Source of the DNA: Patescibacteria group bacterium
Lineage (GTDB): Bacteria; Patescibacteriota; Minisyncoccia; Minisyncoccales; UBA5738
Assembly: GCA_022710775.1 (NCBI GenBank)
Contig: JAKLGH010000001.1
Span: 69,824 to 133,823, forward strand
Reading direction: 5' to 3'
Length of the DNA: 64,000 nucleotides
Part shown: positions 4,185 to 64,000 of the stretch, piece by piece
Layout of the letters: every line of letters starts with the position of its first letter
Position numbering within the stretch: position 1 is the stretch's first letter
Notes under the pieces: generated by a model
The model's input: only the letters and a program-made list of their open reading frames with translations
The model's database searches: none
What the model was told of the DNA's origin: nothing
Made by a program: the position numbers and the translations under genes

Positions 4185-4204
4185 GGCGGATTTTGATTTA
4201 ATTA

Positions 4205-5422: not shown

Positions 5423-5441
5423 GGTTGATGCGTTTATAATT

Positions 5442-7637: not shown

Positions 7638-8066
7638 TTATTCAACCTCAAAAGAATTGGAATAAAAAACTTTATCTTCTTTAAAAGAGTCTCCGATCTT
7701 ACAATCAACGCAAGCGCCGATATTTATTCGGTTAATCCCGGTTTCGACTTCGTCGAGCGTGATCTTAAATTTTTTAGTCTCGCTTTTCCCGAGGCAAATA
7801 TCGACAACATCAGTATCCGAGCAGCTATCGTATTCGTAAGATTTCCATTCAGTTTCCCTTTTCTCAACCCGATATGGATAACAGGATGAAAAACATACCG
7901 TGCGGCCATAATTATTCTTAATGCTTACCACCTGGGTATCTCCGGGAGCGTATATTTTTTTATCGGTTCTTATTTCAACGCTCCCGGATTTTCCCAAAAA
8001 AACAGCCAAACCAAGGACGGATATCAGCGCGGCACCTATTAAGATATGAATATAGATGTTTTTCAT
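7638..8066 (-). CDS. hypothetical small secreted or membrane-anchored Cys-rich protein
   Basis: 142-aa ORF with an N-terminal hydrophobic segment (IHILIGAALISVLGLAVFLG) and 7 Cys. No family recognised. Confidence 0.45.
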   Translation of the reverse strand: MKNIYIHILIGAALISVLGLAVFLGKSGSVEIRTDKKIYAPGDTQVVSIKNNYGRTVCFSSCYPYRVEKRETEWKSYEYDSCSDTDVVDICLGKSETKKFKITLDEVETGINRINIGACVDCKIGDSFKEDKVFYSNSFEVE

Positions 8067-8076
8067 TGAAGAAACG

Positions 8077-9180
8077 CTATTTCTCCCTGATAGTAAATTT
8101 CTTTTCCAAGCTCTTTAACGTATCCATCACGCCGGTATACTCCAGTTCGCTCATCGGAAGCATCGCCGGCCCGGAGAAACCTTGCCTTCTGATCCATTCG
8201 GCTTTTTGCGAGACATTATTACGGACGTAATCCCAATAAGGATGGTCGAACGCGTCGGCCGGTTCGGTCAGCTTGCCGTTTTGGACGCAGAAAGCCATGC
8301 AGGAAATAATCGGCGGCCCATCAAAATAAGAAATGCATGAATTTCTCTTTACCGGCATCATTGGACCGTTATGAGAACCTCTCATAAAACCCGCCACATA
8401 ATGTCCGATCGTGTAAGGAGACAATATCTCTCCTGTCGCCGGAAAATCCTTTTGAGTGCGGACCAGCATGACCGGATCGTCTTTACCGACGTATTTTCCC
8501 GCCACATTGTGCAATCGCGTGGTTGAAGCAGCGACAACCTGCTCTCCGGATGCCCGCGACCAAACCGATTCCACGATATACTTCCCATTGTCTCTAAGCA
8601 AAACGGCAATATCGTATATCTCCTCGGGTGATTGCAGCTCGATCACTTTATCCTTGCCGGTATGCTCAACATCCATGATCACGAATTTATAACCCTTTTT
8701 CACAGCCGGAGACAATAACAACCCGGCGTTGTGCATCGGATCGCAAAATCCCAGGTATAGCGGCAGGTTGAACGCACCCGGCTCGGTTTTATCGGCACAA
8801 AACATCAAAAAAGACTCAGCTCCCCGTTCCTCGATATCCATCTCAGCTACCTGGGGCCCCATGCCTTTGATATTTCCCGAGAAAGCGTCAACCAGCAAAT
8901 CCTGGCCGGCTCCGTATAATCCCTGTTTTTTAGCCATGTCCGCGCCGGCGTATAAGGCATCGTAACACAATTTATGAATATCCTTGTTTCCGGCGCCTTT
9001 TTTGTGAGTCAGTAATATTGCTATATCGTCTCCGGTAAATTCCACAAAACTATCGATAAACAGTGTTTTTCCGAATTTTTTTACGTGCCCCTCCACCGCA
9101 TCGAATACCTTCTGGCTTGGCTTAATATGGCCGCCAATTGATCCGATATCTGCTTTAATTATACTTAAGGTTACTTTCAT
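8077..9180 (-). CDS. fbp: bifunctional fructose-1,6-bisphosphate aldolase/phosphatase (class V, archaeal-type FBPase)
   Basis: The N-terminus MKVTLSIIKADIGSIGGHIKPS matches the characteristic start of class V FBPase/aldolase. Length is ~367 aa. GPMMPV and DPMHNAGLLLSP regions are present. Confidence 0.88.
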   Translation of the reverse strand: MKVTLSIIKADIGSIGGHIKPSQKVFDAVEGHVKKFGKTLFIDSFVEFTGDDIAILLTHKKGAGNKDIHKLCYDALYAGADMAKKQGLYGAGQDLLVDAFSGNIKGMGPQVAEMDIEERGAESFLMFCADKTEPGAFNLPLYLGFCDPMHNAGLLLSPAVKKGYKFVIMDVEHTGKDKVIELQSPEEIYDIAVLLRDNGKYIVESVWSRASGEQVVAASTTRLHNVAGKYVGKDDPVMLVRTQKDFPATGEILSPYTIGHYVAGFMRGSHNGPMMPVKRNSCISYFDGPPIISCMAFCVQNGKLTEPADAFDHPYWDYVRNNVSQKAEWIRRQGFSGPAMLPMSELEYTGVMDTLKSLEKKFTIREK

Positions 9181-20121: not shown

Positions 20122-23100
20122 TTAAATCGGTTCATTATACGGACTCTGCGGGGTTTTTGATTGCGATTTCGGTTGCGCCGCCGTTTGTTTTTCTTCGACT
20201 GCTTTCAGCCGCTGGACCTTAACCGGATCATTTGAACCCACTACCAGCACCTTCCACAAAAACGGGTCAATCTCAATAATATCGTAGCGTTTGATTTCCT
20301 TGGAAAGCAATGCATTGGCCACCAGATTTTCCACGTTGTTCTGAACCGCCCGCCTCATTGCCCGGCCGCCGAACGCCGGATCAAACCCCAGGTCTCCAAG
20401 CTTCTCGATCAGCTTCTGGCTGATCCTGAACTCAATATCCTTCACGGCCAAGCCTTTCTTTATATCGGCAACCATCAATTGCGCAACCTGCTTCATTTCT
20501 TCTTTATCAAGAGGCCGGTAAAGAACAACTGCGTCAAAGCGGTTTAGGAATTCCGGCTTAAACAATTCGCGCCTAAGCAAATTGTCGATGAATGTTTCCT
20601 TGAAAGCGGCATTCAGCTTGCTGCCCCGGTCCACAGCCTCCTTGATATATTCCGCTCCGGCATTCGATGTGGCAATCATAATGGTTTTTTTGAAATCAAC
20701 TTTCCGGCCCGAACCGTCAGCCATCTCGCCATCGTCAAAAATGCTCAAAAACAGGTTTAAAATATTGGGATGCGCCTTCTCGATCTCGTCGATCAAGATC
20801 AGAGACTGGGGATTCTCCATTACCTGGGTTGTGAAATATCCGGGCGAATTGAGATTGCCGATCAGCTTATCGATCGAATCCATAAGCTGGTACTCGGCCA
20901 TATTGAGCCTGATCATATTCTTCTCCGAACCAAAGTAAACCTTGGCCAGCTGCTTGGCGGTTTCGGTTTTGCCGATACCGGTCGGACCGAGGAACAGGAA
21001 ATTACCGATCGTCCGCTTGCTGGTCTTAATGTCTGCCTGTGCGCGCCTTAAGGCGTTGCAAAGTTCGCTTACCGCCTCTTTCTGGTTGATCAACCCCTGG
21101 TGGATGGTATCTTCCAAATGCATCAGGCGATCCGCTTCGGCATCCTGCTCTTTTTGGTCTCCAATGAATGTTCCTTTCTTCTTTTCGTGGTAAGTGTCTC
21201 GTTCTCCGGGAGGTATAAGTTTCCATTCCGCCGGATCAATTTCAATCACATCGCCCGCTTTAACGGTTCCGGCAAGCACGGCTGTGGCGATAATGTTTTC
21301 CACGTTGTTCTGAACAGCCCGGCGCATGGCCCGGCCGCCGAACGCCGGATCAAAACCCTCGTCGGCCAGCTTGCTGAGCAATTCCGGCGTAATGGCCAGT
21401 TCCATGTTCTTCTCGCGCAGCCCAGCGCGAATATCCTTTAACATCAGTTCGGCTACTTGCTGCATCTCTTCCTTGTTAAGAGGCCGGTAAAGCACCACCG
21501 CATCGAAACGGTTGACGAATTCCGGGCGGAAAACGTTCTTTCTTAATAAATTATCAATGAAAACATCTTTAAAATTGGTAAGCTTGGAACCGCGTTCAAC
21601 CGCCTCTCGAATGTAATCCGCGCCCGCATTGGATGTGGCAATGATAATAGAGTGGCGGAAATCAACTTTCCGGCCCGAACCGTCCACCAGCTCTCCGTCA
21701 TCCAGAATACTCAAAAAAAGGTTAAGCAAATTGGGATGCGCCTTCTCGATCTCGTCGATCAGCAGCAGGCAGAACGGATTTTCCCTGATCGCCGTTGTCA
21801 GATATCCCGGCTGGGTGAGCGACCCGATAAGTTTATCGATCGATTCCAAAAGCTGGTACTCGGCCATATTAAGCCTGATCATATTTTTGTCGGAACCGAA
21901 ATAAACCTTGGCCAGCTGCTTGGCAGTTTCGGTCTTGCCGACGCCCGAAGGCCCCAAGAACAGGAAGTTGCCGATAGTACGCTTTCGTTTTTTTAAATCC
22001 GCCCGGGCGCGCCGCATGGCGTTAGCCAATTCCGAAACCGCTTCTTTCTGGTTGATCAATCCTTGGTGTATCAGATTTTCCATGTTGAGCAGCGTTTCCT
22101 TTTCTTTCTGCGCCGCTGATCCGGCCGGCACCTCGTATTTAGCCGAAAAGAACAGATCGATCTCTTCGGGCAAGATCACGCCTCTAGCCTTGGTAGAACG
22201 GGTCCGTTCGTAAACCATCACGTCATCGAGCAAATCTACGGCCTTCTTGGGAAAAGAAATATCGCCGATGAAATAATCACAGAGCTTGATGATCTCCTGA
22301 AGGCTCAATAAAGGCGCGAAGACGCCGGTCCGAGATTCCCGCCAGACAACCTCTTCCTCCAAAATATGAAGCGTTTCATCAAGACTCGGGCTGGGAACCT
22401 CGATCTTGGCAAAATTACTCGCTACATCCCGATTGGTCTCAATGGATTTATGGTATCCGTCGAAAGAGGTGATTCCGATCAGCCGGAAACCCGGCGTCGT
22501 CAAATACTGGGAAAGAATCCCCGTTATATCAATCTTGGCTACCGCTTCGGCCCCGAAAGATTCACCGACGTAATTATGCATCTGCGGTATGACCAGAATG
22601 ACGTTCTGCGCTTTGATCGCCTCGTTAAAAACTTTTTTTAACCTCACTTCCAACATGCGCTTATCCCCCGCGCTGCCGATCAGAGACGGCATATCAATCT
22701 CTAAAATCCTCATGTACGACAGCTCGCGGAAGCTCATATTCTTCAAGATCTTCTTTGCAAAATTGAAAAGCACGCTTTTCCGTCCGGAACCAACCTCTCC
22801 AACCAAAAGCAGGCAATTGCTATTTTGTTTGATCAAGGTTTCCTCGATATCCTTCACCTGTTTTTCGTGAAGAACAACTCGGCTCCAAAACAAGGGATTG
22901 CGGACCGAAAGATCGCGAGAATACTGGTTTAGGGTCAGGGTATAGCCGCCGACAAGCTCCTGAACCGGGCTCGTCTGGAAGTATAGGCATAAATTCTCCC
23001 GCTCCCAGTATCTGCTCTTTTTCTCTCTGTCAACTCCCAGATTATACATCCACAGCACCGTCTCGATCACATCGTTTCTGACAATTTCCAGCGAATCGAG

Positions 23101-23796
23101 CTCCTTATGAAAAAACGGCTCTTCTTCGAGCAAACTTAACAATAAAGCATAAATATTGATTTTCGGAAAACCGTTATCAACGGCGACCTGCCGCGCGCGC
23201 GACAGCACCGCCTCAATCGCCCTGGTATTATCCTCCTGCAAGATCACAGCTTCCTCGCGGGATCGGGCTTGGGGCTGGGTTTTAGCGTAAGCCAGAAGAT
23301 CTTGCTCGAAGTCTGATTTTTTAATGTAAAGCCGGTTAAAAATAAACAGCAAGCGGCTGCCTTTCAAAAGCATGGATAAAAGCATTAATTTAAAAGGCAA
23401 AGCGCTTTTAGCCAAAGTTGCTTTGATCAACTGGGCCGCCTCGAAATCAAGATAATTCAGCAGGTTTTCCCGCTCGCTCATATTCTCATGAAGAAGCGGC
23501 CCCACCTTCTTCAATTTTTTCTCGACAAAACCAATAACAAGCCAGGAAGAACCCCAAAAGAAAAAAGATAAATAAACCACGGCTAGCAAAAGGTCGCTAG
23601 TAATCTTAGGCAAGGTGATTTTAGCCAGAATCGACGGTAAAAACGCTTTAATAGCTTCCAGTCCGCCAAACATCAACAAAGACAAAATCAACAACACATA
23701 CGCCAAAGGCTTGACGGTTTTAAAAACCCGCAACGGGATCAATTTGGCGTAATCAACCATTTTGAAAGTAAATGCGGATTTTTGATTGAATGCCAT
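20122..23796 (-). CDS. membrane-anchored Clp/Hsp100-family AAA+ ATPase with a degenerate D1 and two tandem D2 modules
   Basis: 1224 aa. Residues ~27-95 are hydrophobic (TM). Clp_N-like repeats are present (ALLLSLLEEEP). In D1 the Walker A is degenerate (GEVGSGRKS) and Walker B is replaced (VILVIPQMH). Two D2 modules of ~287 aa follow (residues ~575-861 and ~897-1184). Each has GPxGxGKTE, LLIDEIEKAHP, SNAG and GGRAMRR motifs. They are offset by exactly 322 aa (966 nt). Confidence 0.85.
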   Translation of the reverse strand: MAFNQKSAFTFKMVDYAKLIPLRVFKTVKPLAYVLLILSLLMFGGLEAIKAFLPSILAKITLPKITSDLLLAVVYLSFFFWGSSWLVIGFVEKKLKKVGPLLHENMSERENLLNYLDFEAAQLIKATLAKSALPFKLMLLSMLLKGSRLLFIFNRLYIKKSDFEQDLLAYAKTQPQARSREEAVILQEDNTRAIEAVLSRARQVAVDNGFPKINIYALLLSLLEEEPFFHKELDSLEIVRNDVIETVLWMYNLGVDREKKSRYWERENLCLYFQTSPVQELVGGYTLTLNQYSRDLSVRNPLFWSRVVLHEKQVKDIEETLIKQNSNCLLLVGEVGSGRKSVLFNFAKKILKNMSFRELSYMRILEIDMPSLIGSAGDKRMLEVRLKKVFNEAIKAQNVILVIPQMHNYVGESFGAEAVAKIDITGILSQYLTTPGFRLIGITSFDGYHKSIETNRDVASNFAKIEVPSPSLDETLHILEEEVVWRESRTGVFAPLLSLQEIIKLCDYFIGDISFPKKAVDLLDDVMVYERTRSTKARGVILPEEIDLFFSAKYEVPAGSAAQKEKETLLNMENLIHQGLINQKEAVSELANAMRRARADLKKRKRTIGNFLFLGPSGVGKTETAKQLAKVYFGSDKNMIRLNMAEYQLLESIDKLIGSLTQPGYLTTAIRENPFCLLLIDEIEKAHPNLLNLFLSILDDGELVDGSGRKVDFRHSIIIATSNAGADYIREAVERGSKLTNFKDVFIDNLLRKNVFRPEFVNRFDAVVLYRPLNKEEMQQVAELMLKDIRAGLREKNMELAITPELLSKLADEGFDPAFGGRAMRRAVQNNVENIIATAVLAGTVKAGDVIEIDPAEWKLIPPGERDTYHEKKKGTFIGDQKEQDAEADRLMHLEDTIHQGLINQKEAVSELCNALRRAQADIKTSKRTIGNFLFLGPTGIGKTETAKQLAKVYFGSEKNMIRLNMAEYQLMDSIDKLIGNLNSPGYFTTQVMENPQSLILIDEIEKAHPNILNLFLSIFDDGEMADGSGRKVDFKKTIMIATSNAGAEYIKEAVDRGSKLNAAFKETFIDNLLRRELFKPEFLNRFDAVVLYRPLDKEEMKQVAQLMVADIKKGLAVKDIEFRISQKLIEKLGDLGFDPAFGGRAMRRAVQNNVENLVANALLSKEIKRYDIIEIDPFLWKVLVVGSNDPVKVQRLKAVEEKQTAAQPKSQSKTPQSPYNEPI

Positions 23797-44690: not shown

Positions 44691-46505
44691 TTAGGCGCGG
44701 CTCTTTGAAGCTTTCAAAGCCTTGTTATGCGCTTCAATGTAATTTTGCGCCAGATTGGCCCAGTCGCAATATTCAACCAGTTCGCGAGCCTTGATCTTGT
44801 TCTCGACGCGGTCTTTGCGAGTCAGTGTCGAAAAATCGTACAATACTCCCGACAGCTGCTTTCCCGCTTCAGAGGCATCCTTTCCGAAATTATTGATCAC
44901 AAAAATTCCCGGCTGGTTGTTATCGCGCGGAACATGGCTCATAAAGCGCCCGACTCCGGACATATCGCTTGTTACCGCGGCAACCCCTTCCACCGCCGCT
45001 TCCAACGGAGTATATCCCCAAGGCTCGTAATAAGAGGGAAAAATACCCAGATGGCAACCTTGGATCGCTCCCTGGACGTTTAAATTCAAAATACCGTCGT
45101 GTTCGGTCAGATACACCGGATAGAATACAACCTTGACCCTATCGCTTTTGGCATTCGCCAAACCCGCTTCCTGGAATGCGTTCATAATAGTTTCGTCGTG
45201 GCTGCTTAAACGGTGCGTGCAGATAAGCGGGTTTCCTTCGCGTTTGGTCTTTTTTAATTTTCTTTCCAGGATGTCGTGGGTTTTATCGTCGAATACATCG
45301 GTGTCTTTCAGCGTTTTTCCGGTTAAGATCGAGTTGACAAAGCTTTCGACCATATCCTGGGAATTTTCCTCGACGAATTGTTTAACATCGTTGTACCCGC
45401 TCCGGTTTTCCAAAAGCTCCTCCTCGATTCCGTTTACCCCGGCCGGGATCCAGAAAAACGTTACAATCGTTTTTTTGCTTTTTTCTTCCTTCAGCCTGTT
45501 GTTCATCTCGCCCAGAGATTTGATCAGCAGATCTATCCCTTTGGCATGGAATTCATAGCGCCCGATAATGAAGTAAAAAAGCGTGTTTTTCAAGTCGAAC
45601 GTGTAATAAGGAAAAAAATAGTAAAACAGAAATTCCCGAATCCGGCCGCGCTGGATATGATGCTTGACGGCCACTTCCTCGAAGCTGGTCGATTTGGACA
45701 AATCCAGGCCGTTAGGCAAAAAAACATCCGGCATCCGGTTCAAAAAGCGGTCGCATTCCACGCCGGTAATTTCGGACACCGTTGTGAAGATATCGCAATT
45801 CAAAGCGGCGGCGCGCTCCAGCAGATGCTTGGCGGCTATGCCGTAACGATAAGCTTCTTTCTGCGCATCGATCTGGTCCAGGATAGTGTAAAAATCAACA
45901 TTCGCGAAAGCCATGCTCCTCCCTAAAGACGTGGCATGAGTGGTAAATACCGTCGCCGTTTTAACGCCGAATTTTTTTGCGAACAGAAGCGCCGCCCCGG
46001 CCAGCCATTCGTGGAAATGAGCTACGATCTTCTCTTTTTCATAAGCCTGGCTCAATTTCTCCAAAAGTTTCGCAACCGCGAAACCCCAGACAACCGGTTC
46101 GTCGAACTCGCGAATTGAATTTAGCGAATCGATCTGATATGCGTCCCATAACTGCCATTTGAACTGGTTTATGTCCTTCCAAAGGGCGCTAAAATCAACC
46201 AAAATAACTTTGGGCTCGCCATCGATGATCCAGCGGCCAAAATGGCAATTGATTCCCTCCGCGGCCAATGAATCGAAAATCTCCTGCAACTCGCGCTCCG
46301 GTTTACGCTCTTCAAAAAAATTCTTGGCGCTGCTGTCCAGATACGGGCCAACCAGGTAATAACCGGGGCCGTAATATTTTTGCATCTGAACAGCCTTGGT
46401 CGCCAAAACCGTATTGATTCCGCCTACTTTGTTGCAAACCTCCCATGAGATCTCGAAAGCCAGATCGGCTTCCGCTACGATTGTTTTTTTAGATATTTCT
46501 TCCAT
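44691..46505 (-). CDS. glycogen synthase of the eukaryote-like GT3 type
   Basis: The N-terminus FEISWEVCNKVGGINTVLATKA...YYLVGPY...FGRWIIDGEPKVILVDF parallels the animal/fungal glycogen synthase N-terminus ([39 protein letters not shown]). The C-terminus reads PSYYEPWGYTPLE. Confidence 0.85.
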   Translation of the reverse strand: MEEISKKTIVAEADLAFEISWEVCNKVGGINTVLATKAVQMQKYYGPGYYLVGPYLDSSAKNFFEERKPERELQEIFDSLAAEGINCHFGRWIIDGEPKVILVDFSALWKDINQFKWQLWDAYQIDSLNSIREFDEPVVWGFAVAKLLEKLSQAYEKEKIVAHFHEWLAGAALLFAKKFGVKTATVFTTHATSLGRSMAFANVDFYTILDQIDAQKEAYRYGIAAKHLLERAAALNCDIFTTVSEITGVECDRFLNRMPDVFLPNGLDLSKSTSFEEVAVKHHIQRGRIREFLFYYFFPYYTFDLKNTLFYFIIGRYEFHAKGIDLLIKSLGEMNNRLKEEKSKKTIVTFFWIPAGVNGIEEELLENRSGYNDVKQFVEENSQDMVESFVNSILTGKTLKDTDVFDDKTHDILERKLKKTKREGNPLICTHRLSSHDETIMNAFQEAGLANAKSDRVKVVFYPVYLTEHDGILNLNVQGAIQGCHLGIFPSYYEPWGYTPLEAAVEGVAAVTSDMSGVGRFMSHVPRDNNQPGIFVINNFGKDASEAGKQLSGVLYDFSTLTRKDRVENKIKARELVEYCDWANLAQNYIEAHNKALKASKSRA

Positions 46506-54049: not shown

Positions 54050-54078
54050 TTGACAAAAACAGATGATGGCGATATATA
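54050..54078 (+). promoter_or_regulatory. candidate promoter TTGACA-N17-TATATA of the TetR-MFP-RND operon
   Basis: TTGACA at 54050..54055, 17-nt spacer, TATATA at 54073..54078. Confidence 0.55.
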
Positions 54079-54093
54079 GACTAAGTCAAACTG

Positions 54094-54109
54094 CCTACCA
54101 AACGGTAGG
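54094..54109. promoter_or_regulatory. inverted repeat CCTACC-AAAC-GGTAGG, candidate TetR operator
   Basis: A perfect 6-bp-arm palindrome ~16 nt downstream of the -10 hexamer and upstream of the TetR start. Confidence 0.4.
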
Positions 54110-54149
54110 TAATTTATATACCGTATGGCAAAATTACCCGTTAAATTCC

Positions 54150-54704
54150 ATGGATAACCGATGCTGCACCAAATCAAAGATCCTGGCCGCGGCCCGGAAA
54201 CTATTTTCAAAAAGAGGATATGCCCTCACTTCCCTGGATGAGATCGCAAAAAATGTTTCGATAGCCAAACCGTCCCTGTTTTACCACTTTAAGAACAAAG
54301 AGAATATTTATGCCAGCGTCGCGAAAAATTCGCTTGCCGTGATCATAAGCGACCTGGAAATTTATTTGGAAGAAAGCCGCCTCAAGCAAAGAAACCTTGA
54401 AAAAATCCTGGTTGAAGTGATCGAAAAACGCCTTAACGACGAAATCGTTATCAGGCTGGTCGATATGAAAATGATCGGCTTGGACCAGGAAGTCATTATT
54501 AGCATCCGCGAAGACCTGCAAAAAATACGCAATTTGGTCCGTAAGATCCTGGAAGTTTACGATATCAAAAATCCTAAACTGGCGGCGGAAGTCCTGATCA
54601 ATTCGGTTAATTGCTACGTATTGCATGCAAACGGCAATCTTTCGGAAATTCCGCCCAAAAAATACGGCGCGTACCTGGCTTCCCTTTTTTGCAAAAACGC
54701 TTAA
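54150..54704 (+). CDS. TetR/AcrR-family transcriptional regulator
   Basis: KILAAARKLFSKRGYALTSLDEIAKNVSIAKPSLFYHFKNKENIY is the TetR HTH signature. The ATG at 54150 is preferred because the track start (54063) lies inside the predicted promoter. Confidence 0.85.
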   Translation: MDNRCCTKSKILAAARKLFSKRGYALTSLDEIAKNVSIAKPSLFYHFKNKENIYASVAKNSLAVIISDLEIYLEESRLKQRNLEKILVEVIEKRLNDEIVIRLVDMKMIGLDQEVIISIREDLQKIRNLVRKILEVYDIKNPKLAAEVLINSVNCYVLHANGNLSEIPPKKYGAYLASLFCKNA

Positions 54705-54755
54705 AAAAATGGTAATAACGTTGATACCTAAGAAAATACTAAAAAATAAAATAAC

Positions 54756-56360
54756 ATGCCAACTCCCGATTTTCTCAAAAAAAACCCGATTCTGACTTTT
54801 TTTGTTTGCGCCGTAATAATCATTTTAATCCTGATCCAGCTGCCTAAGATCCGGCAAGCAGCCATTAACGGCGAAAATGCCAGAGACGCGGCGGCGGTGA
54901 GCCTGATTACGATCAGCGATTATAAAAAAACGTCTTCGATCACGCTGGACAGCGGCTTGGTCGAATCGATAAGCCAGGCCGATCTGCGAAGCCAATTCTC
55001 GGCTCCGGTCGAATCGGTCAACGTCGCCTTGGGCGACCGCGTAGCTAAGGGCCAGATTCTTGTCTCGCTTAAAAATGACGATCTGACTGCCCAGCTCGAC
55101 CAGGCTAAAGCCGGTTTGGTAAGTTCCCAAGCCTCTCTTCAAACCGCGGAAAACGGAGCCAGGCCCCAAGAATTGGAAATTTCGAAAACCCAAGCCAGGC
55201 AAGCGGCTCTGTCCCTGGAAGCGGCTCTCCGGGATTCTTACGCCAAAGCCGACGACAGCGTCAGAAACCATATTGATAAATTTTTTCTGAACCCCTCAAG
55301 CAGCTCGCCGGATTTCTTAATCATCATCAATTCCGAAGGGACCACGATCCGATATGGCGCGATCGGCAATGAACAAGCGGCTTTAGCTGAAGCCAAGCGG
55401 GTTGAAATGGAAAAACGCCTGAACAGCTGGCAACAAGACCTGGCGTCGATGGATGGATCCGCTGATCTTTCCAACCATATTTTAACCGCGGCTTCAAACC
55501 TCGAATTCTTGATCGATTTTTTAAATGATCTTTCTCCTTTAGCCAACGCCATTACCGCCAACAACGGCGCGGAAAAACAGGTTTTAGACGGATATAAAAG
55601 CGAACTTTCCGCGGCCCGATCAGCGGCCGCCGGATCATTAGCCTCGCTGCTCGGATCCGAAACAAGTTGGAAGCTGGCGGTCCAGTCGCTGGACCTGATG
55701 AAAGCCGGATCGACCAAAGAACAGCTGATACAAGCCAAAGCTATGGTGGCCCAAGCCGCGGCATCGGTCGAGGCTCTCGAAGCCCAAGTGGAAAAAACCG
55801 TCATCAGAACTCCAATCGCGGGCACTATCTCCTATTTGGATGCGCGCCTCGGAGAAGTGGCCGCCTTTGGACAGCTTGTCGCGTCTATTATCAATCCCGG
55901 CGCTTTGCAGATCAAAACCTATGCCAGCATCGAAGACCTGCCTAATATTGCTATTAATGACCGGGTTGAAATCGGAGACGGCCGGGCGGTCGGTTATGTT
56001 TACCGGATATCCCCGGCGATCGATCCGGCCTTGAAAAAAGCCGAAGCGATCGTCATCGTCGACAAAAACAGCGCTGATTCGCCCATCGTCGCCGGCCAAA
56101 CCGTGAATTTAAGCATCGAAAGCAAAAAAAGCGGATCCAAAACGCTTTATTTGCTGCCGATCCAAGCCGTTAAAACCAACGGGGCAAGCTACGTATACGC
56201 CGCCAGCGGCGAAAACACGGTCGTATCGATTCCGGTAACCGTGGGAAACCTGGTCGGCGAAACAATTGAAGTTTGGGGAGATTTTAACGCGGACCAAAAA
56301 ATTATTTCTTCGGTTATGGGCATCGCGCCGGGAAATAAAGTAATAATCAGCGAACAATAG
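54756..56360 (+). CDS. efflux RND periplasmic adaptor (membrane fusion protein, HlyD-like) with a long coiled-coil hairpin
   Basis: N-terminal TM, lipoyl-like KGQILVSLKNDDLTAQLDQAKAGL, a long Ala/Gln-rich coiled coil, then IRTPIAGTISYLDARLGEVA. Confidence 0.85.
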   Translation: MPTPDFLKKNPILTFFVCAVIIILILIQLPKIRQAAINGENARDAAAVSLITISDYKKTSSITLDSGLVESISQADLRSQFSAPVESVNVALGDRVAKGQILVSLKNDDLTAQLDQAKAGLVSSQASLQTAENGARPQELEISKTQARQAALSLEAALRDSYAKADDSVRNHIDKFFLNPSSSSPDFLIIINSEGTTIRYGAIGNEQAALAEAKRVEMEKRLNSWQQDLASMDGSADLSNHILTAASNLEFLIDFLNDLSPLANAITANNGAEKQVLDGYKSELSAARSAAAGSLASLLGSETSWKLAVQSLDLMKAGSTKEQLIQAKAMVAQAAASVEALEAQVEKTVIRTPIAGTISYLDARLGEVAAFGQLVASIINPGALQIKTYASIEDLPNIAINDRVEIGDGRAVGYVYRISPAIDPALKKAEAIVIVDKNSADSPIVAGQTVNLSIESKKSGSKTLYLLPIQAVKTNGASYVYAASGENTVVSIPVTVGNLVGETIEVWGDFNADQKIISSVMGIAPGNKVIISEQ

Positions 56361-56361
56361 C

Positions 56362-59300
56362 ATGTCAGGAAAATCATCATCCGATTACCAATACTTGAAC
56401 CGGCTGGAGTTTAAACCGGAGCTCAAAAAGACCTGGTTGAATTTTTTTGTCTCCCGCTTCCGCGTCGTCATTTTGCTCATTCTTTTGATCACGGCTTGGG
56501 GCCTGTATTCCTATTTCAAACTCCCCCGCGAATCCAATCCCGAAGTAAAAATCCCGATCGCGGTGGTTTCAACCGTTTTCCCGGGAGCGTCTCCAACCGA
56601 CATTGAGGAATTGATAACCAAAAAAGTCGAAACCAAGATCTCCGGGCTGAAAGGCGTAGACTCGATAACCTCCTATTCATCCAATTCCGTTTCGACGGTA
56701 GTCGTGGAATTCGACGCCAAAGAAGACCTTGAAGACTCCATCAGGAGCGTGCGCGACAGCGTTTCCACCTTGAAGAACAGCCTGCCGGAAAACGCCAATG
56801 ACCCGGTCGTAAACCAGATATCGCTTGACGATACGCCCATCCTGACAGTCGCCGTCAGCGGTCCCTACGACGGATTTGCCTTGCGCGACCATGCCGACAA
56901 CATCAAGGACGAGCTGGAAAAGATCAGCGGCGTAAGGGAAGTGATGATTTCGGGCGGAGACCAAAAAGAAATATCCGTTTCCTGCCTGCCGGAAAAACTC
57001 CGTTTTTACGGCGTTTCCGTCGACCAGGTAACTTCAAGCCTCGCTGCCGCCAACCTTTCGATGCCTTCCGGAAATTTTGACGGCGGCACCTACGTCTATT
57101 CGATCTCGGCCGACGCGAGGGTTTACGACGCCGAAGCTTTCGGCCAGATTCCGATAGCGGCAGGCGGCACCCTGGCTCCCGTCTACTTAAAAGACGTAGC
57201 CGAGGTTAAGGAAACCGCCATCAAGAAAACCGCCTATTCGCGGATCTCTTCGGCGGGCCAAGCGCCTTTGGATGCCGTTGAGATCAGTATCGTCAAAAGG
57301 GCGGGCGGAAATATCATCGAAACCGCGGATGCCGCGAAACTGGCTTTTGATTCCTACATCGCAAAAAATCCGGGATTAAGATACGACGTAACGCTTGACC
57401 AATCCGATTATATCCGGGAAGATTTCGACCAGTTGACGCACGATTTCATCCTTACTATTTTCCTGGTAATGGGCGTTCTGCTTTTGATGGTCGGATTCAA
57501 AGAAGCTTTTGTCGCCGGCTTGGCCATACCTTTGGTCTTTTTCGTCTCTTTCGGGGTAATGAGCCTTTCGGGTATTACCATGAACTTTCTTTCAACTTTC
57601 GCTTTACTGCTGTCGCTGGGCTTGATCGTCGATGACGCCATCGTTGTCGTTTCGGCAACCAAGATGTACATGCGCACCGGAAAATTCACGCCCGAAGAAG
57701 CGATTCTTTTGGTTTTAAACGATTTCAAGGTCGTACTTACCGCCACGACGCTGACCACGGTCTGGGCCTTTTTGCCTTTGCTTTTTTCATCCGGCATTAT
57801 GGGCATTTTTATCCGGTCGGTTCCAATCGTCCTCTCGGTTACCCTTATCTCTTCGCTGGCTATCGCGCTGATGGTCAACCATCCTTTAGCCGCTGTTCTT
57901 GAAAGAGTGCGCTTAACTCCCGTTTTTTTCTTTATTTACCTCTCTCTGGCGTTTTTGGCCGCCCTCTCGCTCCTGGCTCAAGGCGGCATCGTTTCAACTG
58001 TCATCGCCGCGGCGATCATCGTTGCCGTCGGCGCGCTGATATTCTGGTATGAACGCGGAGGAAAGAAACCGCTTTGGGAAAACCGCCGCCTGCTCTACCT
58101 TGAAGCGAAAAGCGACGAACTGATAAAGGCCAAGCTAAAGGCCCAATCCTTAAACGACGATAAAACCGATTTTAGCGCCAGATTGTCGCACGGCATCGCC
58201 AATATCAACGCTTTCCTGCCATTGTACGAGAAACATCTGGCCATGCTGATCGACGATAAAAAGAAAAGGAAATTTTTTTTGGCGGCGGTATTCGGCTTGT
58301 TCCTGGCGGCGGCGGCGCTGCCAATCCTTGGAATAGTTAAAACCGAGTTCTTTCCGGCCGACGATTTTAATTATCTTACCATTAATATTGAAGCCCCCAT
58401 CGGATACAAGCTGGAAAAGACCGGCGCAATCGTCTCTAAGGTCGAGGAAAAATTGCTGGCTTACAAGGAAATAAAGAATTTCTCGACCGTGGTCGGCGGA
58501 TCAGCCGCCACGGATACTTTTACTTCAGGATCCTCCTCATCCGCGGACACGGCCGGCATAACGATAAATCTTGTACCCAAAAGCGAACGCAAACTAAAAT
58601 CCTATGAACTCGGCGAATTGATGCGGAATGATTTCGCGGATATTAAGGATGCTAAAATCGTCGTTACCGAGCTTCAAGGCGGACCGCCAAGCGGTTCGGC
58701 TTTCGAAGCCGACATTATGGGAGACGATCTGGATGAACTGACCCGCATCGCCAACGACCTTAAACCCCGGCTGGAAAAGATCAGCGGCGTCATCAACGCC
58801 GACATTTCGTTAAAAGAAGCTCCCCCGGAATATACCTTTATCCTAAACCAGCAAAAACTGGCCGAGCACAGCCTGAATGCCGCCTATGTCGGCGCGGTTT
58901 TGCGCAGCGCTGTTTCGGGCACCGAAGCGACAACGGTATTCAGCAATAACAAGGAAATATCGGTGAATGTCCGTTTCGATCCCGGATCGATCCCGTCATT
59001 GAACGATATCCAGAACCTTCAGATCGTCAACCTCGCCAAGCAGCCGGTTTATCTGAAAGATGTGGCCGATATCAAACTGGTGCCCAGCGTCCGCACCATC
59101 GAACGAATCGATCAAAAAAGGACGGTCGTCCTTTCCTCCGACGTAGCCGCGACCGCCAATGCCAACCTGGTTTTATCCGAATTCCAAAGCATATTAAAAA
59201 ATGACTATAAACTGCCCCAGGGCTATGAAATATCTTACGGGGGGCAAAATGAGGAAAACGCCAATTCGGTCATGTCGATCTTACTGGCCATGATCGTAGC

Positions 59301-59751
59301 GTTCGTATTGATCATCACCACCCTGGTCATCCAGTTTAATTCGTTCATTAAAGCCCTGATCGTGCTGATCACCGTACCTTTGGCTTTGATCGGAACTTTC
59401 ATTGGAATGGCGCTCACCGGCATCACCTTAAGCTTCCCCGGGCTGATCGGAATCCTTGCCCTGTTCGGAATCGTCGTAAAGAACGCCATTATCTTAATCG
59501 ACAAGATCGGGCTTAATTTAAAAAGCGGCATTGCCTGGCGCGATTCGATCATCGACGCGGGAAAATCCCGGCTTGAAGCGATCTTTATCACTTCATTTTG
59601 CACGATATTAGGCATCGTTCCGATCACCTTATCGAGCAAAACCTGGGAAGGCTTGGGCGCGGCCATAATCTTTGGCCTCTCCATCTCCTCTTTCTTTACC
59701 CTGTTTGTCATCCCCGCTTTGTTTGCCCAATTCTTAAAAGAGGAAAAGTAG
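56362..59751 (+). CDS. RND-family efflux transporter permease (AcrB/AcrD/AcrF family)
   Basis: 1129 aa. LPRESNPEVKIPIAVVSTVFPGASPTDIEELITKKVE, with duplicated 6-TM bundles (..SLGLIVDDAIVVV.. and ..LFGIVVKNAIILID..). It starts 2 nt after the MFP stop. Confidence 0.95.
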   Translation: MSGKSSSDYQYLNRLEFKPELKKTWLNFFVSRFRVVILLILLITAWGLYSYFKLPRESNPEVKIPIAVVSTVFPGASPTDIEELITKKVETKISGLKGVDSITSYSSNSVSTVVVEFDAKEDLEDSIRSVRDSVSTLKNSLPENANDPVVNQISLDDTPILTVAVSGPYDGFALRDHADNIKDELEKISGVREVMISGGDQKEISVSCLPEKLRFYGVSVDQVTSSLAAANLSMPSGNFDGGTYVYSISADARVYDAEAFGQIPIAAGGTLAPVYLKDVAEVKETAIKKTAYSRISSAGQAPLDAVEISIVKRAGGNIIETADAAKLAFDSYIAKNPGLRYDVTLDQSDYIREDFDQLTHDFILTIFLVMGVLLLMVGFKEAFVAGLAIPLVFFVSFGVMSLSGITMNFLSTFALLLSLGLIVDDAIVVVSATKMYMRTGKFTPEEAILLVLNDFKVVLTATTLTTVWAFLPLLFSSGIMGIFIRSVPIVLSVTLISSLAIALMVNHPLAAVLERVRLTPVFFFIYLSLAFLAALSLLAQGGIVSTVIAAAIIVAVGALIFWYERGGKKPLWENRRLLYLEAKSDELIKAKLKAQSLNDDKTDFSARLSHGIANINAFLPLYEKHLAMLIDDKKKRKFFLAAVFGLFLAAAALPILGIVKTEFFPADDFNYLTINIEAPIGYKLEKTGAIVSKVEEKLLAYKEIKNFSTVVGGSAATDTFTSGSSSSADTAGITINLVPKSERKLKSYELGELMRNDFADIKDAKIVVTELQGGPPSGSAFEADIMGDDLDELTRIANDLKPRLEKISGVINADISLKEAPPEYTFILNQQKLAEHSLNAAYVGAVLRSAVSGTEATTVFSNNKEISVNVRFDPGSIPSLNDIQNLQIVNLAKQPVYLKDVADIKLVPSVRTIERIDQKRTVVLSSDVAATANANLVLSEFQSILKNDYKLPQGYEISYGGQNEENANSVMSILLAMIVAFVLIITTLVIQFNSFIKALIVLITVPLALIGTFIGMALTGITLSFPGLIGILALFGIVVKNAIILIDKIGLNLKSGIAWRDSIIDAGKSRLEAIFITSFCTILGIVPITLSSKTWEGLGAAIIFGLSISSFFTLFVIPALFAQFLKEEK

Positions 59752-59783
59752 CAAACTGGCTGTTGTTCCAGCCAAGGCAAAAC

Positions 59784-59809
59784 CGCCCTTATCGGGCGGT
59801 TTTGTTTTC
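59784..59809. terminator. bidirectional rho-independent terminator between the RND operon and the distal end of the CRISPR array
   Basis: CCGCCC-TTATC-GGGCGG, preceded by AAAA and followed by TTTTGTTTT. Confidence 0.7.
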
Positions 59810-59880
59810 CAGAGACCGGGACTCTGCTGGCTTCTGGTCTCTGTTGGCTTTTTGGGTGGCGTAATTTTGGAGCAGAATAA

Positions 59881-60721
59881 ATCTACAAAAGTAGAAATTG
59901 AATATGCCTATTAGAGTTGTTAAGTGATAGGTATAACAAGTAATCTACAAAAGTAGAAATTGAATATGCCTATTAGAGAAAGAAGAACTAAAAAGATTAC
60001 AATATCTACAAAAGTAGAAATTGAATATGCCTATTAGAGTTTTAGTGCTATTGATGGTTTTTCTATCTACAAAAGTAGAAATTGAATATGCCTATTAGAG
60101 TTTTTAATTCTTTTAAGATGTCTTCATCTACAAAAGTAGAAATTGAATATGCCTATTAGAGAACAGACAAATCGCCAATATTATCTTATCTACAAAAGTA
60201 GAAATTGAATATGCCTATTAGAGTTTACCGGAATCAGGACCCCTCGTTTATCTACAAAAGTAGAAATTGAATATGCCTATTAGAGTGCCAAGAGTCCGGG
60301 CAATCATCTGATCTACAAAAGTAGAAATTGAATATGCCTATTAGAGTTAAAAATTTTTTGAAATATCAGTACAATCTACAAAAGTAGAAATTGAATATGC
60401 CTATTAGAGAAACTGGCGCTCGGAATTCTATGAGATCTACAAAAGTAGAAATTGAATATGCCTATTAGAGTCCCATAAAGGCAATCGGCTGTCGTATATC
60501 TACAAAAGTAGAAATTGAATATGCCTATTAGAGCTTTCGTTAGATGATCAATACTATCAATATCTACAAAAGTAGAAATTGAATATGCCTATTAGAGACC
60601 GCCTTGTCATAAAAACATACGTTATCTACAAAAGTAGAAATTGAATATGCCTATTAGAGTCGCCTACTTGCTATGGCTGATATACATCTACAAAAGTAGA
60701 AATTGAATATGCCTATTAGAG
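59881..60721 (-). CRISPR. CRISPR array: 14 identical 36-nt repeats and 13 spacers of 25-28 nt, Cas12a-type repeat
   Basis: Plus-strand repeat is ATCTACAAAAGTAGAAATTGAATATGCCTATTAGAG. Repeat starts are 59881, 59943, 60004, 60065, 60126, 60188, 60250, 60311, 60374, 60435, 60498, 60562, 60624, 60686. The reverse complement CTCTAATAGGCATATTCAATTTCTACTTTTGTAGAT ends in the Cas12a handle, so transcription runs on the minus strand, as for the cas genes. Confidence 0.97.
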
Positions 60722-60852
60722 AGCTGATCGGATCGTAATTAGCTTTAAAGATGCGATTATTGAATAAAATTCAGATAACGACTTTAAGCTAATTACGACC
60801 GAAAAAAGCATAAAGACTAAGGTTTTTTCTAATAGATACATGGCAATTTCCA
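60722..60852 (-). promoter_or_regulatory. CRISPR leader (between cas2 and the first repeat), AT-rich with a long inverted repeat
   Basis: A 131-nt AT-rich region adjacent to the cas2-proximal repeat. The inverted repeat TCGTAATTAGCTTTAAAG (60733..60750) / ACTTTAAGCTAATTACGA (60781..60798) flanks a 30-nt AT-rich loop. Confidence 0.5.
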
Positions 60853-61164
60853 CTAATTTGCTACTTTTTGATTTGGTATTAAATTGCCAAAGAACAGAAA
60901 GTCTTTCTCTTCATTTTCCGCATATCCGTACCGCTTTAATTTTCCCTTACAACCTTCGCATACGGTGATTATAATAATGCTGTCTCTTTTTGTAAAGATT
61001 GGCTTGTATTTCATATCTATCTCTTTCAGCAAATTTGCCAAAAACCGGGAACTGTTTTTAACTTCATAAACCGAATATTGCAACCGCCGTCCGTATTTTT
61101 TTAAAAACTTGGAAAATTTGCTTCTGGTTTTATTATCTTCAAAATCATAAGAAACTATAAACAT
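60853..61164 (-). CDS. cas2: CRISPR-associated endoribonuclease Cas2
   Basis: MFIVSYDFEDNKTRSKFSKFLKKYGRRLQYSVYEV is the Cas2 N-terminal beta-alpha motif with the conserved Asp. 103 aa, adjacent to cas1 and the array. Confidence 0.9.
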   Translation of the reverse strand: MFIVSYDFEDNKTRSKFSKFLKKYGRRLQYSVYEVKNSSRFLANLLKEIDMKYKPIFTKRDSIIIITVCEGCKGKLKRYGYAENEEKDFLFFGNLIPNQKVAN

Positions 61165-61196
61165 TTTAAGTTAATCCGCCGCAGACCGAACATTAT

Positions 61197-62171
61197 TTAA
61201 CCGTGGCTCGCTTGTTTTTTTTGCTTCAAAGAAAACTTCGGAAAATCCGAACCGTTCATCACGCAATAATAAAAATCCCGAACATAACAATAAATTTCTT
61301 CCCGATGATCCAAAATCGCCTGCGCAAATATCGCCAGATACTTTTCCTGGCGATCCCAGCCTAATTCCCGCTTTCCGGCTCTTTCCTTAAAATCATCTAC
61401 ATCAATTTGCCTAAGATGATAGGCCTTAACAATCGCTTTATCGATAATACAGCGAAAAGGCTCAATCAAATCGCAAACAAGCGATTTTCTCTGAAAAAAC
61501 AGCCGGTGATAAAACCCTTTATAAGAATCGAAGCCGTATATACCAACCATGCCGTCGATAAAATTGAATAACATGGTATACCCGATATCGAGCAAAACAT
61601 TGCTTACATCGGTTTTGGCTCGCGGCAAGCGGCGTTTCCACCCCATTTCTGAAAAATATTCCTGAAAGAAAAACTTGCTTGCTGACCCTTCAAGTCCCAG
61701 CAAATCATTGCCATTTTTTGCTTCCGCCACTTTTAATTTAATATCCTTAAGGCTTGCCGGGTTTTTGGTCATCTTTTGCTCCAACAGCAATCCAACCTGA
61801 TTATCAATTTTATTCGAAACAAGCTTCTTGGCCATTTCAAGCTCAGCTGCATTATCCCAAGAATATTGCTTTTCCCGCAATAAATAATTACCTTCGGCCG
61901 TCGAGATTATCCGGGCGTAGGCTAAAAAATTTCGGTTGCATAAAAATACGGAAACACCGCATTTTTTGCAATTTCTAACCATCACGCTGGTAAGCGAACA
62001 TTCTCCAATGATAAATACACAAAAAACCTTGTGGCAAGATATCTGGTTCTCGATCTTACCGTTCTTGCATAAACAAATATTGTCATTGGCAATCTTAATT
62101 TTGTCCACATCGATATTCCCGGCGCTCACGAACAATATTTGTTTTTCCCGAAAATCAGGCAGGCTCAGCAT
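61197..62171 (-). CDS. cas1: CRISPR-associated integrase Cas1
   Basis: LGLEGSASKFFFQEYF.., NVLLDIGYTMLFNFI.., GFYHRLFFQRKSLVCDLIEPFRCIID are Cas1 catalytic-domain motifs (E, H, D/E). Confidence 0.93.
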   Translation of the reverse strand: MLSLPDFREKQILFVSAGNIDVDKIKIANDNICLCKNGKIENQISCHKVFCVFIIGECSLTSVMVRNCKKCGVSVFLCNRNFLAYARIISTAEGNYLLREKQYSWDNAAELEMAKKLVSNKIDNQVGLLLEQKMTKNPASLKDIKLKVAEAKNGNDLLGLEGSASKFFFQEYFSEMGWKRRLPRAKTDVSNVLLDIGYTMLFNFIDGMVGIYGFDSYKGFYHRLFFQRKSLVCDLIEPFRCIIDKAIVKAYHLRQIDVDDFKERAGKRELGWDRQEKYLAIFAQAILDHREEIYCYVRDFYYCVMNGSDFPKFSLKQKKQASHG

Positions 62172-62175
62172 ATAA

Positions 62176-62715
62176 TTAGTGGCAAAGCGGCTGGTAAACG
62201 CATTGCAAGCATTTATTTTCGTTAACCGGCCGCGGAATTTCGGGCCGATATTTTTTCATTTTTTCGACAAGCGACAAAAAATGGTTCATTTCTTCCTCAT
62301 CGGGGATAGCTATCTTATAACGTTTATTGTCGGCCAATGATTGAATCGCCAGTGATTTAACCTCGTAACCCATTTCCCGCAAGCAAACCATTTGCGCGTA
62401 AAGCTGGTATTTATAACCGTCAAATATCGTTTTCACTTTGTACTTCCGTTCAACAAGCAACCCGCTTTTAATATCGAAAGTATCAATCTTTCCCATAATC
62501 CCCAGCCGTTCCGAGCAAACTTCCAATCCCTGCAAAACATTCTTAGCGGTCGTATAGGTTCTGTTGTCCACCGCTTCATGCGCAAGCCGTCCAACCGTCT
62601 GCGCCGTCCGATGATAGGTTTTAACGCTAAAATCATCATATACCGAGTGCAAATAGATCGAATAAGGGCAAAAAATAAAATCATTTATCTTGGAAATCTG
62701 TATATAGTCTTCCAT
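62176..62715 (-). CDS. cas4: CRISPR-associated exonuclease Cas4 (RecB-like, 4-Cys)
   Basis: The N-terminal Cys is in INDFIFCPYSIYLH. The nuclease core reads GKIDTFD..LVERKYK. The C-terminal cluster is CLQCVYQPLC. Its ATG overlaps the effector stop (TAATG at 62713..62717). Confidence 0.9.
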   Translation of the reverse strand: MEDYIQISKINDFIFCPYSIYLHSVYDDFSVKTYHRTAQTVGRLAHEAVDNRTYTTAKNVLQGLEVCSERLGIMGKIDTFDIKSGLLVERKYKVKTIFDGYKYQLYAQMVCLREMGYEVKSLAIQSLADNKRYKIAIPDEEEMNHFLSLVEKMKKYRPEIPRPVNENKCLQCVYQPLCH

Positions 62716-64000
62716 TAAACAGTTTTCTGCCTTATTTTAAGATTGTTCGCCATATAATCTACCCAATTTTTTTCTCCCGCAAGCCAAGCATCCCACTCTT
62801 CATTTCGCACAAACAAATCCGCGTTTCTTTTAATATGTTCGCTCATAATAATTCCCTTGCGGGCAATATTATACGCGCCGTTAGCATCGCCATTTTGCGG
62901 GAGTTTTGCACCATTTTTGATCTTACGAGAGTCAAAAAAGTCACCACTCGCACCCCTAACGGGAGAAAGAATAAAGTCGTTGTCTTTTTCATCTTCTCCG
63001 GTGTTGCGGATCTGTTGAATAACATCAATAACAAATCTTAAGCTTTCCCAAGCTGTTCGTTCTTTGTCGAATTTATTCAATTCTTTACCATCTTTAATCT
63101 GCTCTTTGAAAGATTTATTTTTATCAAATCCCTTAAAAATATTTTCTAAATTTTTAACGATATCAATTCTATCCGGGCTCCAATGCTTCTTACCCTCTTT
63201 TTCTGAAAATTTATCGCGATATCTATCCAATTCCGCACCATTTTTTCCGGAATATAAAATCCATTCTTTACCAATATTCGCGTCTTTATATTTGAAATAA
63301 TAATCCTTACCATCAAAACCAAAATCACTGAATAAATCAAAAATTTGCTCTTTAATTTCTGACCCCTTTTTAATAGATATTGTTTTGTGCCAGCCCGTAA
63401 TTGGATCAGTGGCTGAGGTAAAGCTTGGATTAGTATAAAACATAATCCCAAATTGCTTGCCTTTAATATCGTTAAAATCATGAACTGGCGGAGTAAACTG
63501 CAAGGCATTATCAACCGAAGCCATTTCCCCATCTTTAGCGCTTTTATCAACAAGAAAATTCAATTTTTTAGCCAAGGCAAGTTCAAGTTTTTGGTAAACC
63601 TGTTTTTCAATTTTCTGCCGCCCGCGCTTGAAGCCGATATTTAAATCCTCAAGAATAATAAGCGCGGGAGTTTCGCGAAAACCTTTTTTCCTGTCGCCCT
63701 CGTTGTAAACCGCCAAATCGACAATTTTTCTTACAACTTGCGAAATATATCCATCTTTTAAATCTTTTATATTGCCGATTGTCGTCCAATTTTTGCGCGC
63801 CAAGTCGCGATCGCCTTGTTTTATGTCCAACTTTTCCCAATAATTTTGCTTATTTATTATATTAAAACTACCCTGCTCTAAAATTTCTCCCCTTTGATTT
63901 ACAAGAGAATAGTAAGCAAGGTTTTTTTCGCCTCTGTCAATTCCGAGAAATAGCTGGTTTTTGGTTTCTACAATAACTTGATTCACTAAATCATTAATTC
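62715..64000 (-). CDS. cas12a: Cas12a (Cpf1)-like type V-A effector, C-terminal ~428 codons (5' part lies beyond the right edge of the window)
   Basis: The frame stays open to position 64000; the track M at 63986 is an internal GTG. RuvC-I is [17 protein letters not shown]. RuvC-II is [28 protein letters not shown]. The Nuc-region reads [17 protein letters not shown]. RuvC-III is [17 protein letters not shown]. It is collinear with FnCas12a (SIDRGERHLAYYTL / [26 protein letters not shown] / LISPVADVNGNFFDSR / QDADANGAYHIGLKG). No HNH domain lies between RuvC-II and RuvC-III. Confidence 0.93.
   Translation of the reverse strand, partial: [427 protein letters not shown]

Follow-up and report, generated by a model that had tools for sequence, protein, structure and literature searches.

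Cas12a (Cpf1) has been known in genomes of the candidate phyla radiation (CPR) since 2015, and CPR bacteria rarely keep CRISPR-Cas systems. The system discussed here is a type V-A CRISPR-Cas locus at one end of a 64,000-nt stretch of DNA from a Patescibacteria group bacterium (assembly GCA_022710775.1, contig JAKLGH010000001.1, positions 69,824 to 133,823 of the forward strand), which we refer to as the window. It is a locus of a known kind, and this particular member is uncharacterized and probably inactivated. FnCas12a (PDB 5MGA, 5NFV, and 6GTC), and also LbCas12a and AsCas12a, have the REC1, PI-like, RuvC, and NUC domains in common with the protein encoded here. The RuvC D/E/D residues, the arginine corresponding to Fn R1218, and a GWxxxK motif are shared with FnCas12a; the cas4-cas1-cas2-array order and the CRISPR RNA (crRNA) handle AAUUUCUAC-N4-GUAGAU are those of Cas12a systems. 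Unlike that of FnCas12a, the gene described here is frameshifted after codon 256, its host is a CPR bacterium, and its locus lies on a low-GC island. Cas12a loci have been described in the CPR bacteria Parcubacteria, Dojkabacteria, and Roizmanbacteria (Zetsche et al. 2015, as summarized in PMC6509639). They share superphylum and subtype with the present locus, of which this strain's copy is interrupted.

The interruption itself has a parallel in the fragmented CasY (fCasY, Cas12d) of Roizmanbacteria, which arose by an AAAAA-to-AAAA deletion (Chen et al. 2019, PMC6509639). Like fCasY, the present gene is a CPR type V effector that was split when a short A run lost one A, with Cas1 and the array retained; the fCasY deletion was fixed across all the reads that were mapped, and ours is present in all recorded contigs. 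The two differ in subtype (V-D versus V-A) and in the number of lesions, since fCasY carries a second, nonsense lesion whereas we see a single one. Moreover, the fCasY locus has self-targeting spacers, whereas none was found here with up to 4 mismatches in about 72 kb of host DNA, comprising the window and the flanks on the contig that we recovered.

The genes of the locus form a canonical class 2 type V-A arrangement, cas12a-cas4-cas1-cas2-leader-array, all on the minus strand. According to the open reading frame (ORF) list of the window, the 3' part of cas12a occupies 62715..64000 and runs past the window end; its frame is open from 63998 to the stop codon at 62715-62717 (427 codons plus stop) and corresponds to residues 890-1316 of the 1316-aa reading described below. 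It is followed by cas4 (62176..62715, 179 aa), cas1 (61197..62171, 324 aa), and cas2 (60853..61164, 103 aa), all intact, then by an AT-rich 131-nt leader (60722..60852) that separates cas2 from the first repeat, and by the CRISPR array (59881..60721). The cas12a stop codon and the cas4 ATG have one base in common (TAATG), and cas4 and cas1 are 4 nt apart. Gene order, overlap, and spacings are thus those given in an earlier reading of the window from its sequence only (the sequence-only reading), to judge from both the ORF list and the reading frame. Cas4 and Cas1 exceed the cutoffs of the type-V-specific NCBIfam models TIGR04328 (cas4_PREFRAN, 227.5 bits, cutoff 70, model positions 1-175 of 178) and TIGR04329 (cas1_PREFRAN, 309.8 bits, cutoff 300). 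Likewise, the Pfam families Cas_Cas4 and Cas_Cas1 (E 4e-47) are matched, and Cas2 matches TIGR01573 (E 1.7e-15) and Pfam CRISPR_Cas2 (E 4e-16).

The part of the effector that lies in the window matches Pfam RuvC_1 (E 5e-68) and Cas12a NUC (E 2e-9). Against TIGR04330 (cas_Cpf1), it reaches an E value of 1.3e-85 and 288.2 bits, a score under the 300-bit cutoff because the window edge cuts the protein and leaves only model positions 882-1286. Aligned with FnCas12a structures (PDB 5MGA; E 2.9e-61, over Fn residues 897-1310), it presents identical residues, D910, E1006, R1247, and D1260, opposite Fn D917, E1006, R1218, and D1255. The corresponding codons are those of the GIDRGE Asp of RuvC-I (63936-63938), the ILEDLN Glu of RuvC-II (63648-63650), the FFDSR Arg (62925-62927), and the GDANGAY Asp of RuvC-III (62886-62888), exactly where the split RuvC motifs had been placed before. 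The non-HNH insert, previously put at about 250 aa, measures 254 residues from the RuvC-II Glu to the RuvC-III Asp, and this interval is the Pfam Cas12a NUC domain and not an HNH domain; no Pfam HNH match was found in either the window fragment or the full-length reading. The Cas12a/Cpf1 assignment made in the sequence-only reading is borne out by concordant evidence from TIGR04330, TIGR04328, TIGR04329, the FnCas12a alignment, and the V-A stem-loop of the repeat.

To read the gene in full, the source contig was recovered by an exact look-up of the window Cas1, which matched 18 contigs across ENA, JGI, NCBI, and Logan. Four copies were read (ENA k141, JGI, an NCBI metagenome-assembled genome [MAG], and Logan), and none differs from the window in the overlapping parts. 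On the recovered contig (L001; window position = 72172 - L001 position), cas12a starts with the ATG at 5508, equivalent to window position 66664 and thus past the window end. On all recorded contigs, however, gene calling divides the effector into two ORFs, one of 274 aa with REC1 and one of 1004 aa with the PI-like, RuvC, and NUC parts. The lesion that separates them is a 1-nt deletion, A8 to A7, at L001 6270-6276 (window-equivalent 65896-65902), about 1.9 kb past the window end, and it shifts the frame after codon 256 (codon 256-257). From the ATG, the native frame reads ...DENLPKFVDNLLSYKK, then 18 unrelated residues, then a stop (274 aa). The -1 frame opens at the A run (TCT TAT AAA AAA ATA, from L001 6272), continues as NKDEYDKVF..., and stays open for 1061 codons to the stop in the window, including the PI, WED-III, RuvC, and Nuc regions. 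This second ORF has no ATG near its beginning, and its called start is a TTG 170 nt downstream.

Insertion of one A in the A7 run yields a single ORF of 1316 aa. This repaired reading scores 658.7 bits on TIGR04330 (cutoff 300), has the Pfam domains REC1 (residues 61-353), Cpf1_PI-like (677-772), RuvC_1, and NUC, and aligns with FnCas12a over residues 2-1310 (E 2.6e-135) without a gap at the junction. The two checks proposed in the sequence-only reading, extension to the N terminus and a profile search with the full protein, therefore both returned a Cas12a, with REC1, PI-like, RuvC, and NUC and without HNH. A GWxxxK motif is present as GWDINK at residue 618; this motif is perhaps important for PAM (protospacer-adjacent motif) recognition (PMC7757703). 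In the closest intact ortholog (L008, 77% aa identity), the corresponding stretch, TAC GAG AAA AAT AAA, is read in frame (LSYEKNKDEYD), which indicates that the ancestral state here was an A8 run from which one A was lost. Ten homopolymers of A or T with a length of at least 7 occur in the gene, and a deletion of this type is thus an expected kind of accident. The 274-aa product, whose exact sequence is possible only with A7, was found on 18 contigs, two different NCBI MAGs included, and these agree in number and size classes with the 18 contigs that carry the strain's Cas1 and Cas4. The A7 allele is present wherever the strain has been assembled, which argues against an assembly artifact and against frequent switching.

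Taking the family assignment, which is nearly certain, together with the loss of function, which is less so, we consider it likely that this is a type V-A locus whose effector was recently inactivated and whose interference function was lost. Translation from the native start ends after 274 aa, and for the remaining codons, in the -1 frame, no start is evident; the adaptation module is intact and the 13-spacer array is kept. Comparison with related loci shows the frameshift to be a mutation and not a conserved recoding site, and it would probably deprive this strain of cas12a function. Several observations weigh against this view. The recovered copies are all identical and give no time depth, so that a recent mutation looks the same as one that is tolerated or bypassed, and the second ORF has accumulated no further lesions over about 1060 codons. 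Besides, some of the 18 contigs may share a sample or derive from related ones, and they would then not amount to 18 independent observations; and no protospacer was found that would bear on recent activity or the PAM. Slippage on A7 could still restore the frame at a low level, and rare reversion could take place.

The last point leads to the possibility that the frameshift is bypassed in expression, by RNA polymerase slippage on A7 or by a -1 slip of tRNA-Lys on A AAA AAA. If so, ...SYKKNKDEYD..., the sequence of the orthologs, would be made, together with a low level of full-length Cas12a, and interference would be kept. The shift does lie exactly in a homopolymeric A run on which -1 re-pairing of tRNA-Lys would be perfect, the -1 frame is free of stops from the run itself (L001 6272) to the end, and ORF2 has no other defect. 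We nevertheless find bypass unlikely. The site is not conserved, given the in-frame GAG AAA AAT of L008 and the single frame of all related loci that match over the full length with the exception of one (L033); nine of these loci were checked for stops and have no internal stop codon. Furthermore, no downstream stimulatory structure was detected, the folding of the 120 nt after the A run being no stronger than that of shuffled sequences (z = -0.18), efficient transcriptional slippage takes runs longer than A7, and related loci show plain nonsense decay. Programmed frameshifting was rejected as the main explanation on account of the unstructured downstream sequence and the nonconserved site.

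A phase-variation switch, in which slipped-strand mispairing at the A7/A8 run toggles cas12a, for example, against autoimmunity or to permit DNA uptake, would equally account for a single-unit change in a homopolymer, in a gene with ten A/T runs of 7 or more and next to intact adaptation genes and array. This seems to us quite improbable, since the OFF allele is on 18 of 18 recorded contigs, the run is not conserved in relatives, and A7-8 is short for a contingency tract. In addition, a protein search across the junction detected no intact A8 variant and gave only the 274-aa fragment (99% identity), a weak result in that neither this search nor a second one of the same protein database returned a protein longer than 735 aa. 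Both missed the 1004-aa ORF of the locus itself and the intact 1324-aa ortholog of L008; the lists of "short Cas12a" matches are a property of the search and not evidence of widespread fragmentation. Homopolymers being the classic site of base-calling errors, the gene could also be intact in cells and the frameshift an assembly or sequencing error, but we hold this to be very unlikely, as four contigs from four collections (ENA k141, JGI, NCBI MAG, Logan) are identical at the site and the frameshift-specific ORF occurs on 18 contigs, a second NCBI MAG among them. Finally, the RuvC core weakly matches a Cas12f2 model (E 6e-7, 28.6 bits, cutoff 450), which might suggest another type V subtype; the score of the full reading on TIGR04330, the end-to-end FnCas12a alignment, the fit of Cas4 and Cas1 to V-A-specific models, and the canonical V-A handle in the repeat make that idea, or the idea that the repeats are not a CRISPR array, extremely remote. 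Recent inactivation of a Cas12a effector is accordingly the explanation that we favor.

The array retained next to the inactivated effector consists of the repeat unit CTCTAATAGGCATATTCAATTTCTACTTTTGTAGAT in 14 exact 36-nt copies, spaced by 61-64 nt, with 13 spacers of 25-28 nt each. It is impossible that fourteen identical 36-mers at this spacing arose by chance. Repeat number, leader length, and spacer lengths are as they had been described, and the rest of the window contains no further CRISPR array. The last 19 nt of the repeat constitute the Cas12a handle, AAUUUCUACUUUUGUAGAU. RNA folding gives a stem-loop, UCUAC-UUUU-GUAGA, with a 5-bp stem and a 4-nt loop (-4.8 kcal/mol), which fits the V-A repeat motif UCUAC[N3-5]GUAGAU (PMC7757703), and the array is on the strand of the cas genes. 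The same 3' handle, in the same orientation and position downstream of cas2, is found in 25 related loci from genomes and metagenomes; our literature search returned no paper with the exact handle sequence. No anti-repeat of at least 10 nt is present in the island outside the array (0.66 expected by chance), which speaks against a trans-activating crRNA (tracrRNA) encoded there. None of the 13 spacers matched a protospacer in GenBank phages, and eight spacers, or their 20-26-nt PAM-proximal parts, gave no match in IMG/VR; for want of a protospacer match, no PAM was inferred.

With an intact effector, such a locus would be expected to follow the established working steps of the Cas12a family. 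Cas4, Cas1, and Cas2 would add new spacers at the leader-proximal repeat, and transcription of the array would start from the leader. Each crRNA would consist of a 5' handle, the last 19-20 nt of the repeat, followed by the spacer, with no involvement of a tracrRNA. The Cas12a-crRNA complex would then locate its protospacer by a T-rich 5' PAM, and the single RuvC site would cut both strands, with a stagger and on the PAM-distal side. The PAM and the chemistry of processing and cleavage are extrapolated to this system by analogy with the family.

As for crRNA maturation, the pre-crRNA processing activity of FnCas12a depends on H843 as the acid, K852 as the transition-state stabilizer, and K869 as the base (PMC11127173). 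The matching WED-III segment comprises approximately residues 843-873 of the repaired protein (L001 ~8034-8126, window-equivalent ~64046-64138). In an alignment that is uncertain in this loop, the 10-residue stretch with Fn H843 is absent, leaving a loop that is 10 residues shorter than in FnCas12a and has no His, K852 faces a Lys, and the K869 position is a Glu. By the same uncertain alignment, the short His-less loop occurs in most Patescibacteria relatives, and the Fn-like motif in Bacteroidales and Clostridia relatives. That this Cas12a could process its own pre-crRNA is an assumption on our part.

The nearest full-length relatives that we found are in Patescibacteria or Paceibacter MAGs, with 53-77% aa identity and near-identical repeats. 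In a sister contig (L006), which has the same repeat and 89% nucleotide identity over the cas1-cas2-leader stretch, the spacers are different, from which it follows that acquisition has been active in the lineage. Decay of the effector is recurrent among nearby relatives, three of which show it. One (L005; JGI 3300015266, Ga0183122_107599; 3-3800) is a locus in decay: its cas12a, encoding an effector 79% identical to ours, is interrupted by three nonsense codons (Y, Y, and K to stop), one of them inside GIDRGE*H (GIDRGE-K), and its leader, still recognizable, is followed by one truncated repeat, while cas4, cas1, and cas2 are intact. Another (L035; JGI 3300037067, Ga0378408_0047924; 98-5948) has an in-frame TAA at codon 1157 of cas12a, before RuvC-III, and in the third (L033) cas12a is frameshifted. 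In L035, Cas1 and Cas4 cluster with the window proteins at 90% identity and the RNA element upstream of cas12a (see below) is 97.6% identical, whereas the effector is only 29% identical. This combination indicates that the effector and the adaptation module have been exchanged separately; in L035, the exchange seems to have affected the effector and spared the conserved sequences on either side. We also noted two MAGs labeled "uncultured Gammaproteobacteria" (L014, CAZFUL010000004.1; L016, CAYUTM010000009.1) with Patescibacteria-type V-A loci. Their effectors are 42-48% identical to ours over the full length and 51-60% in the C-terminal part, with the same repeat family and upstream RNA element, which points to misbinning or horizontal transfer.

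The CRISPR-Cas block of this strain, about 7 kb, has a GC content of 30-40%, versus 47-52% outside, and is compositionally foreign. It is bracketed by a 168-bp direct repeat whose copies are 94% identical (158/168; blastn E 5e-73). The upstream copy is found a short distance before cas12a and past the window end (L001 4995-5162, window-equivalent 67010-67177). The downstream copy (59665..59832, no strand assigned) comprises a G+C-rich hairpin (~59779-59804, AAAACCGCCCGATAAGGGCGGTTTT) and the last 87 nt of a resistance-nodulation-division (RND) transporter gene. This hairpin, described as a terminator hairpin, stands between the array and the RND gene, which is convergent with it. Such a pattern would be the footprint expected of a single-crossover insertion of circular DNA carrying the segment, and the two repeats would offer a route for clean loss or excision of the island.

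As a type V-A locus, the system contains nothing new in kind, and NCBI already lists the strain's Cas proteins with type V names. It is valuable as a case study of CRISPR-Cas gain and loss in CPR bacteria, one that brings together a foreign island set in 168-bp repeats, a homopolymer knockout of the effector with persistence of the adaptation genes and the array, and relatives with independent nonsense decay and with an effector swap beside a conserved adaptation module. The frameshift, the anatomy of the island, and the module exchange are instructive, and each has precedent. For those interested in mining the ortholog as a nuclease, the 1316-aa protein requires that the lost A be put back, and its crRNA-processing pocket looks atypical in the alignment. 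The sole element that is possibly new in kind, and that could raise a new question, is an RNA encoded upstream of cas12a, outside the window.

This element, about 85 nt long, lies directly 5' of cas12a at L001 5404-5490 (window-equivalent 66682-66768) and ends 18 nt before the ATG. Its nucleotide sequence is 80-98% identical across nine loci, the effectors of which are only 29-77% identical in amino acid sequence. The other eight copies are at L008 1759-1845, L012 7297-7383, L013 7146-7233, L014 7135-7222, L016 7006-7093, L017 6848-6935, L026 7155-7243, and L035 1-80. The element folds into a single long hairpin of three nested helices closed by a U run. In the alignment, 98.6% of cells are paired and five pairs are compensatory, values that none of 500 shuffles reached, and invariant G-U pairs assign the element to the cas12a strand. 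A covariance model has one match per locus in the nine loci, always just upstream of cas12a; elsewhere in 0.5 Mb, it found nothing except one weak match (27 bits), upstream of the cas12a of another related locus (L032). No Rfam family corresponds to the element, the only Rfam signals being subthreshold leader or terminator look-alikes at the hairpin of the 168-bp repeat, and phage and plasmid collections contained no match.

A conserved noncoding RNA directly upstream of cas12a and on the same strand is reminiscent of CreR, a degenerate mini-CRISPR that regulates cas genes upstream of Moraxella bovoculi cas12a and that has 20 consecutive nucleotides, the 5' handle, in common with the CRISPR repeat (bioRxiv 10.1101/2023.03.10.532045). 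Unlike CreR, the present element has no handle copy and forms a long three-helix hairpin that ends in a U run. Searching for the handle AATTTCTACTTTTGTAGAT on either strand with up to 4 mismatches detected no copy outside the array, and its absence from the element at that tolerance places the element outside the CreR class. Identity as a tracrRNA was rejected for lack of an anti-repeat, and a role as terminator of an upstream gene because no conserved gene precedes the element. In three loci, the gap between element and start codon is 18-23 nt, which makes it more likely that the element is part of the cas12a 5' leader, for instance, a conditional terminator, than a separate unit. We would only tentatively propose an undescribed Cas12a-associated leader or small RNA. 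Through its terminator-like stem, the element could gate cas12a transcription; another possibility is a role in crRNA biogenesis, given that the Cas12a of this clade is without the canonical RNase His in the alignment. Next to it, at L001 5330-5507, we observed a degenerate inverted copy of the element core (5341-5368 versus 5434-5461), which is also found in L008. The inverted copy can pair with the 3' half of the element, and in L008 there appear, by eye, to be three compensatory changes. The whole region (L001 5330-5507) folds with -58.6 kcal/mol (z = -5.2), and the inverted core copy may form an alternative structure. In L008 only, a 96-aa ORF (MEKEVILKLHKNF...FWYARELQLLLGY..., 1907-2197) lies between the element and cas12a.

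The remainder of the window holds ordinary metabolism genes. An Rfam search of the window returned one tRNA-Thr (1961-2033) and no other match. Among the genes in window 1-59751 are those for an [FeFe] hydrogenase (17418-19157), a ClpB-like double-AAA protein of 1224 aa (20122-23796), and a glycogen synthase (44691-46505), in addition to a GDE_C glucosidase, two pyruvate phosphate dikinase-like enzymes, acetyl-CoA synthetase, and FtsZ. Nearest to the array, a TetR-family gene is followed by a 534-aa ORF and the RND pump (54063-59751). One NCBI copy of the window proteins is labeled "Candidatus Pacearchaeota archaeon," apparently a taxonomic mislabel. The gene set of window 1-59751 is typical of fermentative Paceibacterota, and the CPR host proposed in the sequence-only reading agrees with the name Candidatus Paceibacterota that the host carries at NCBI.

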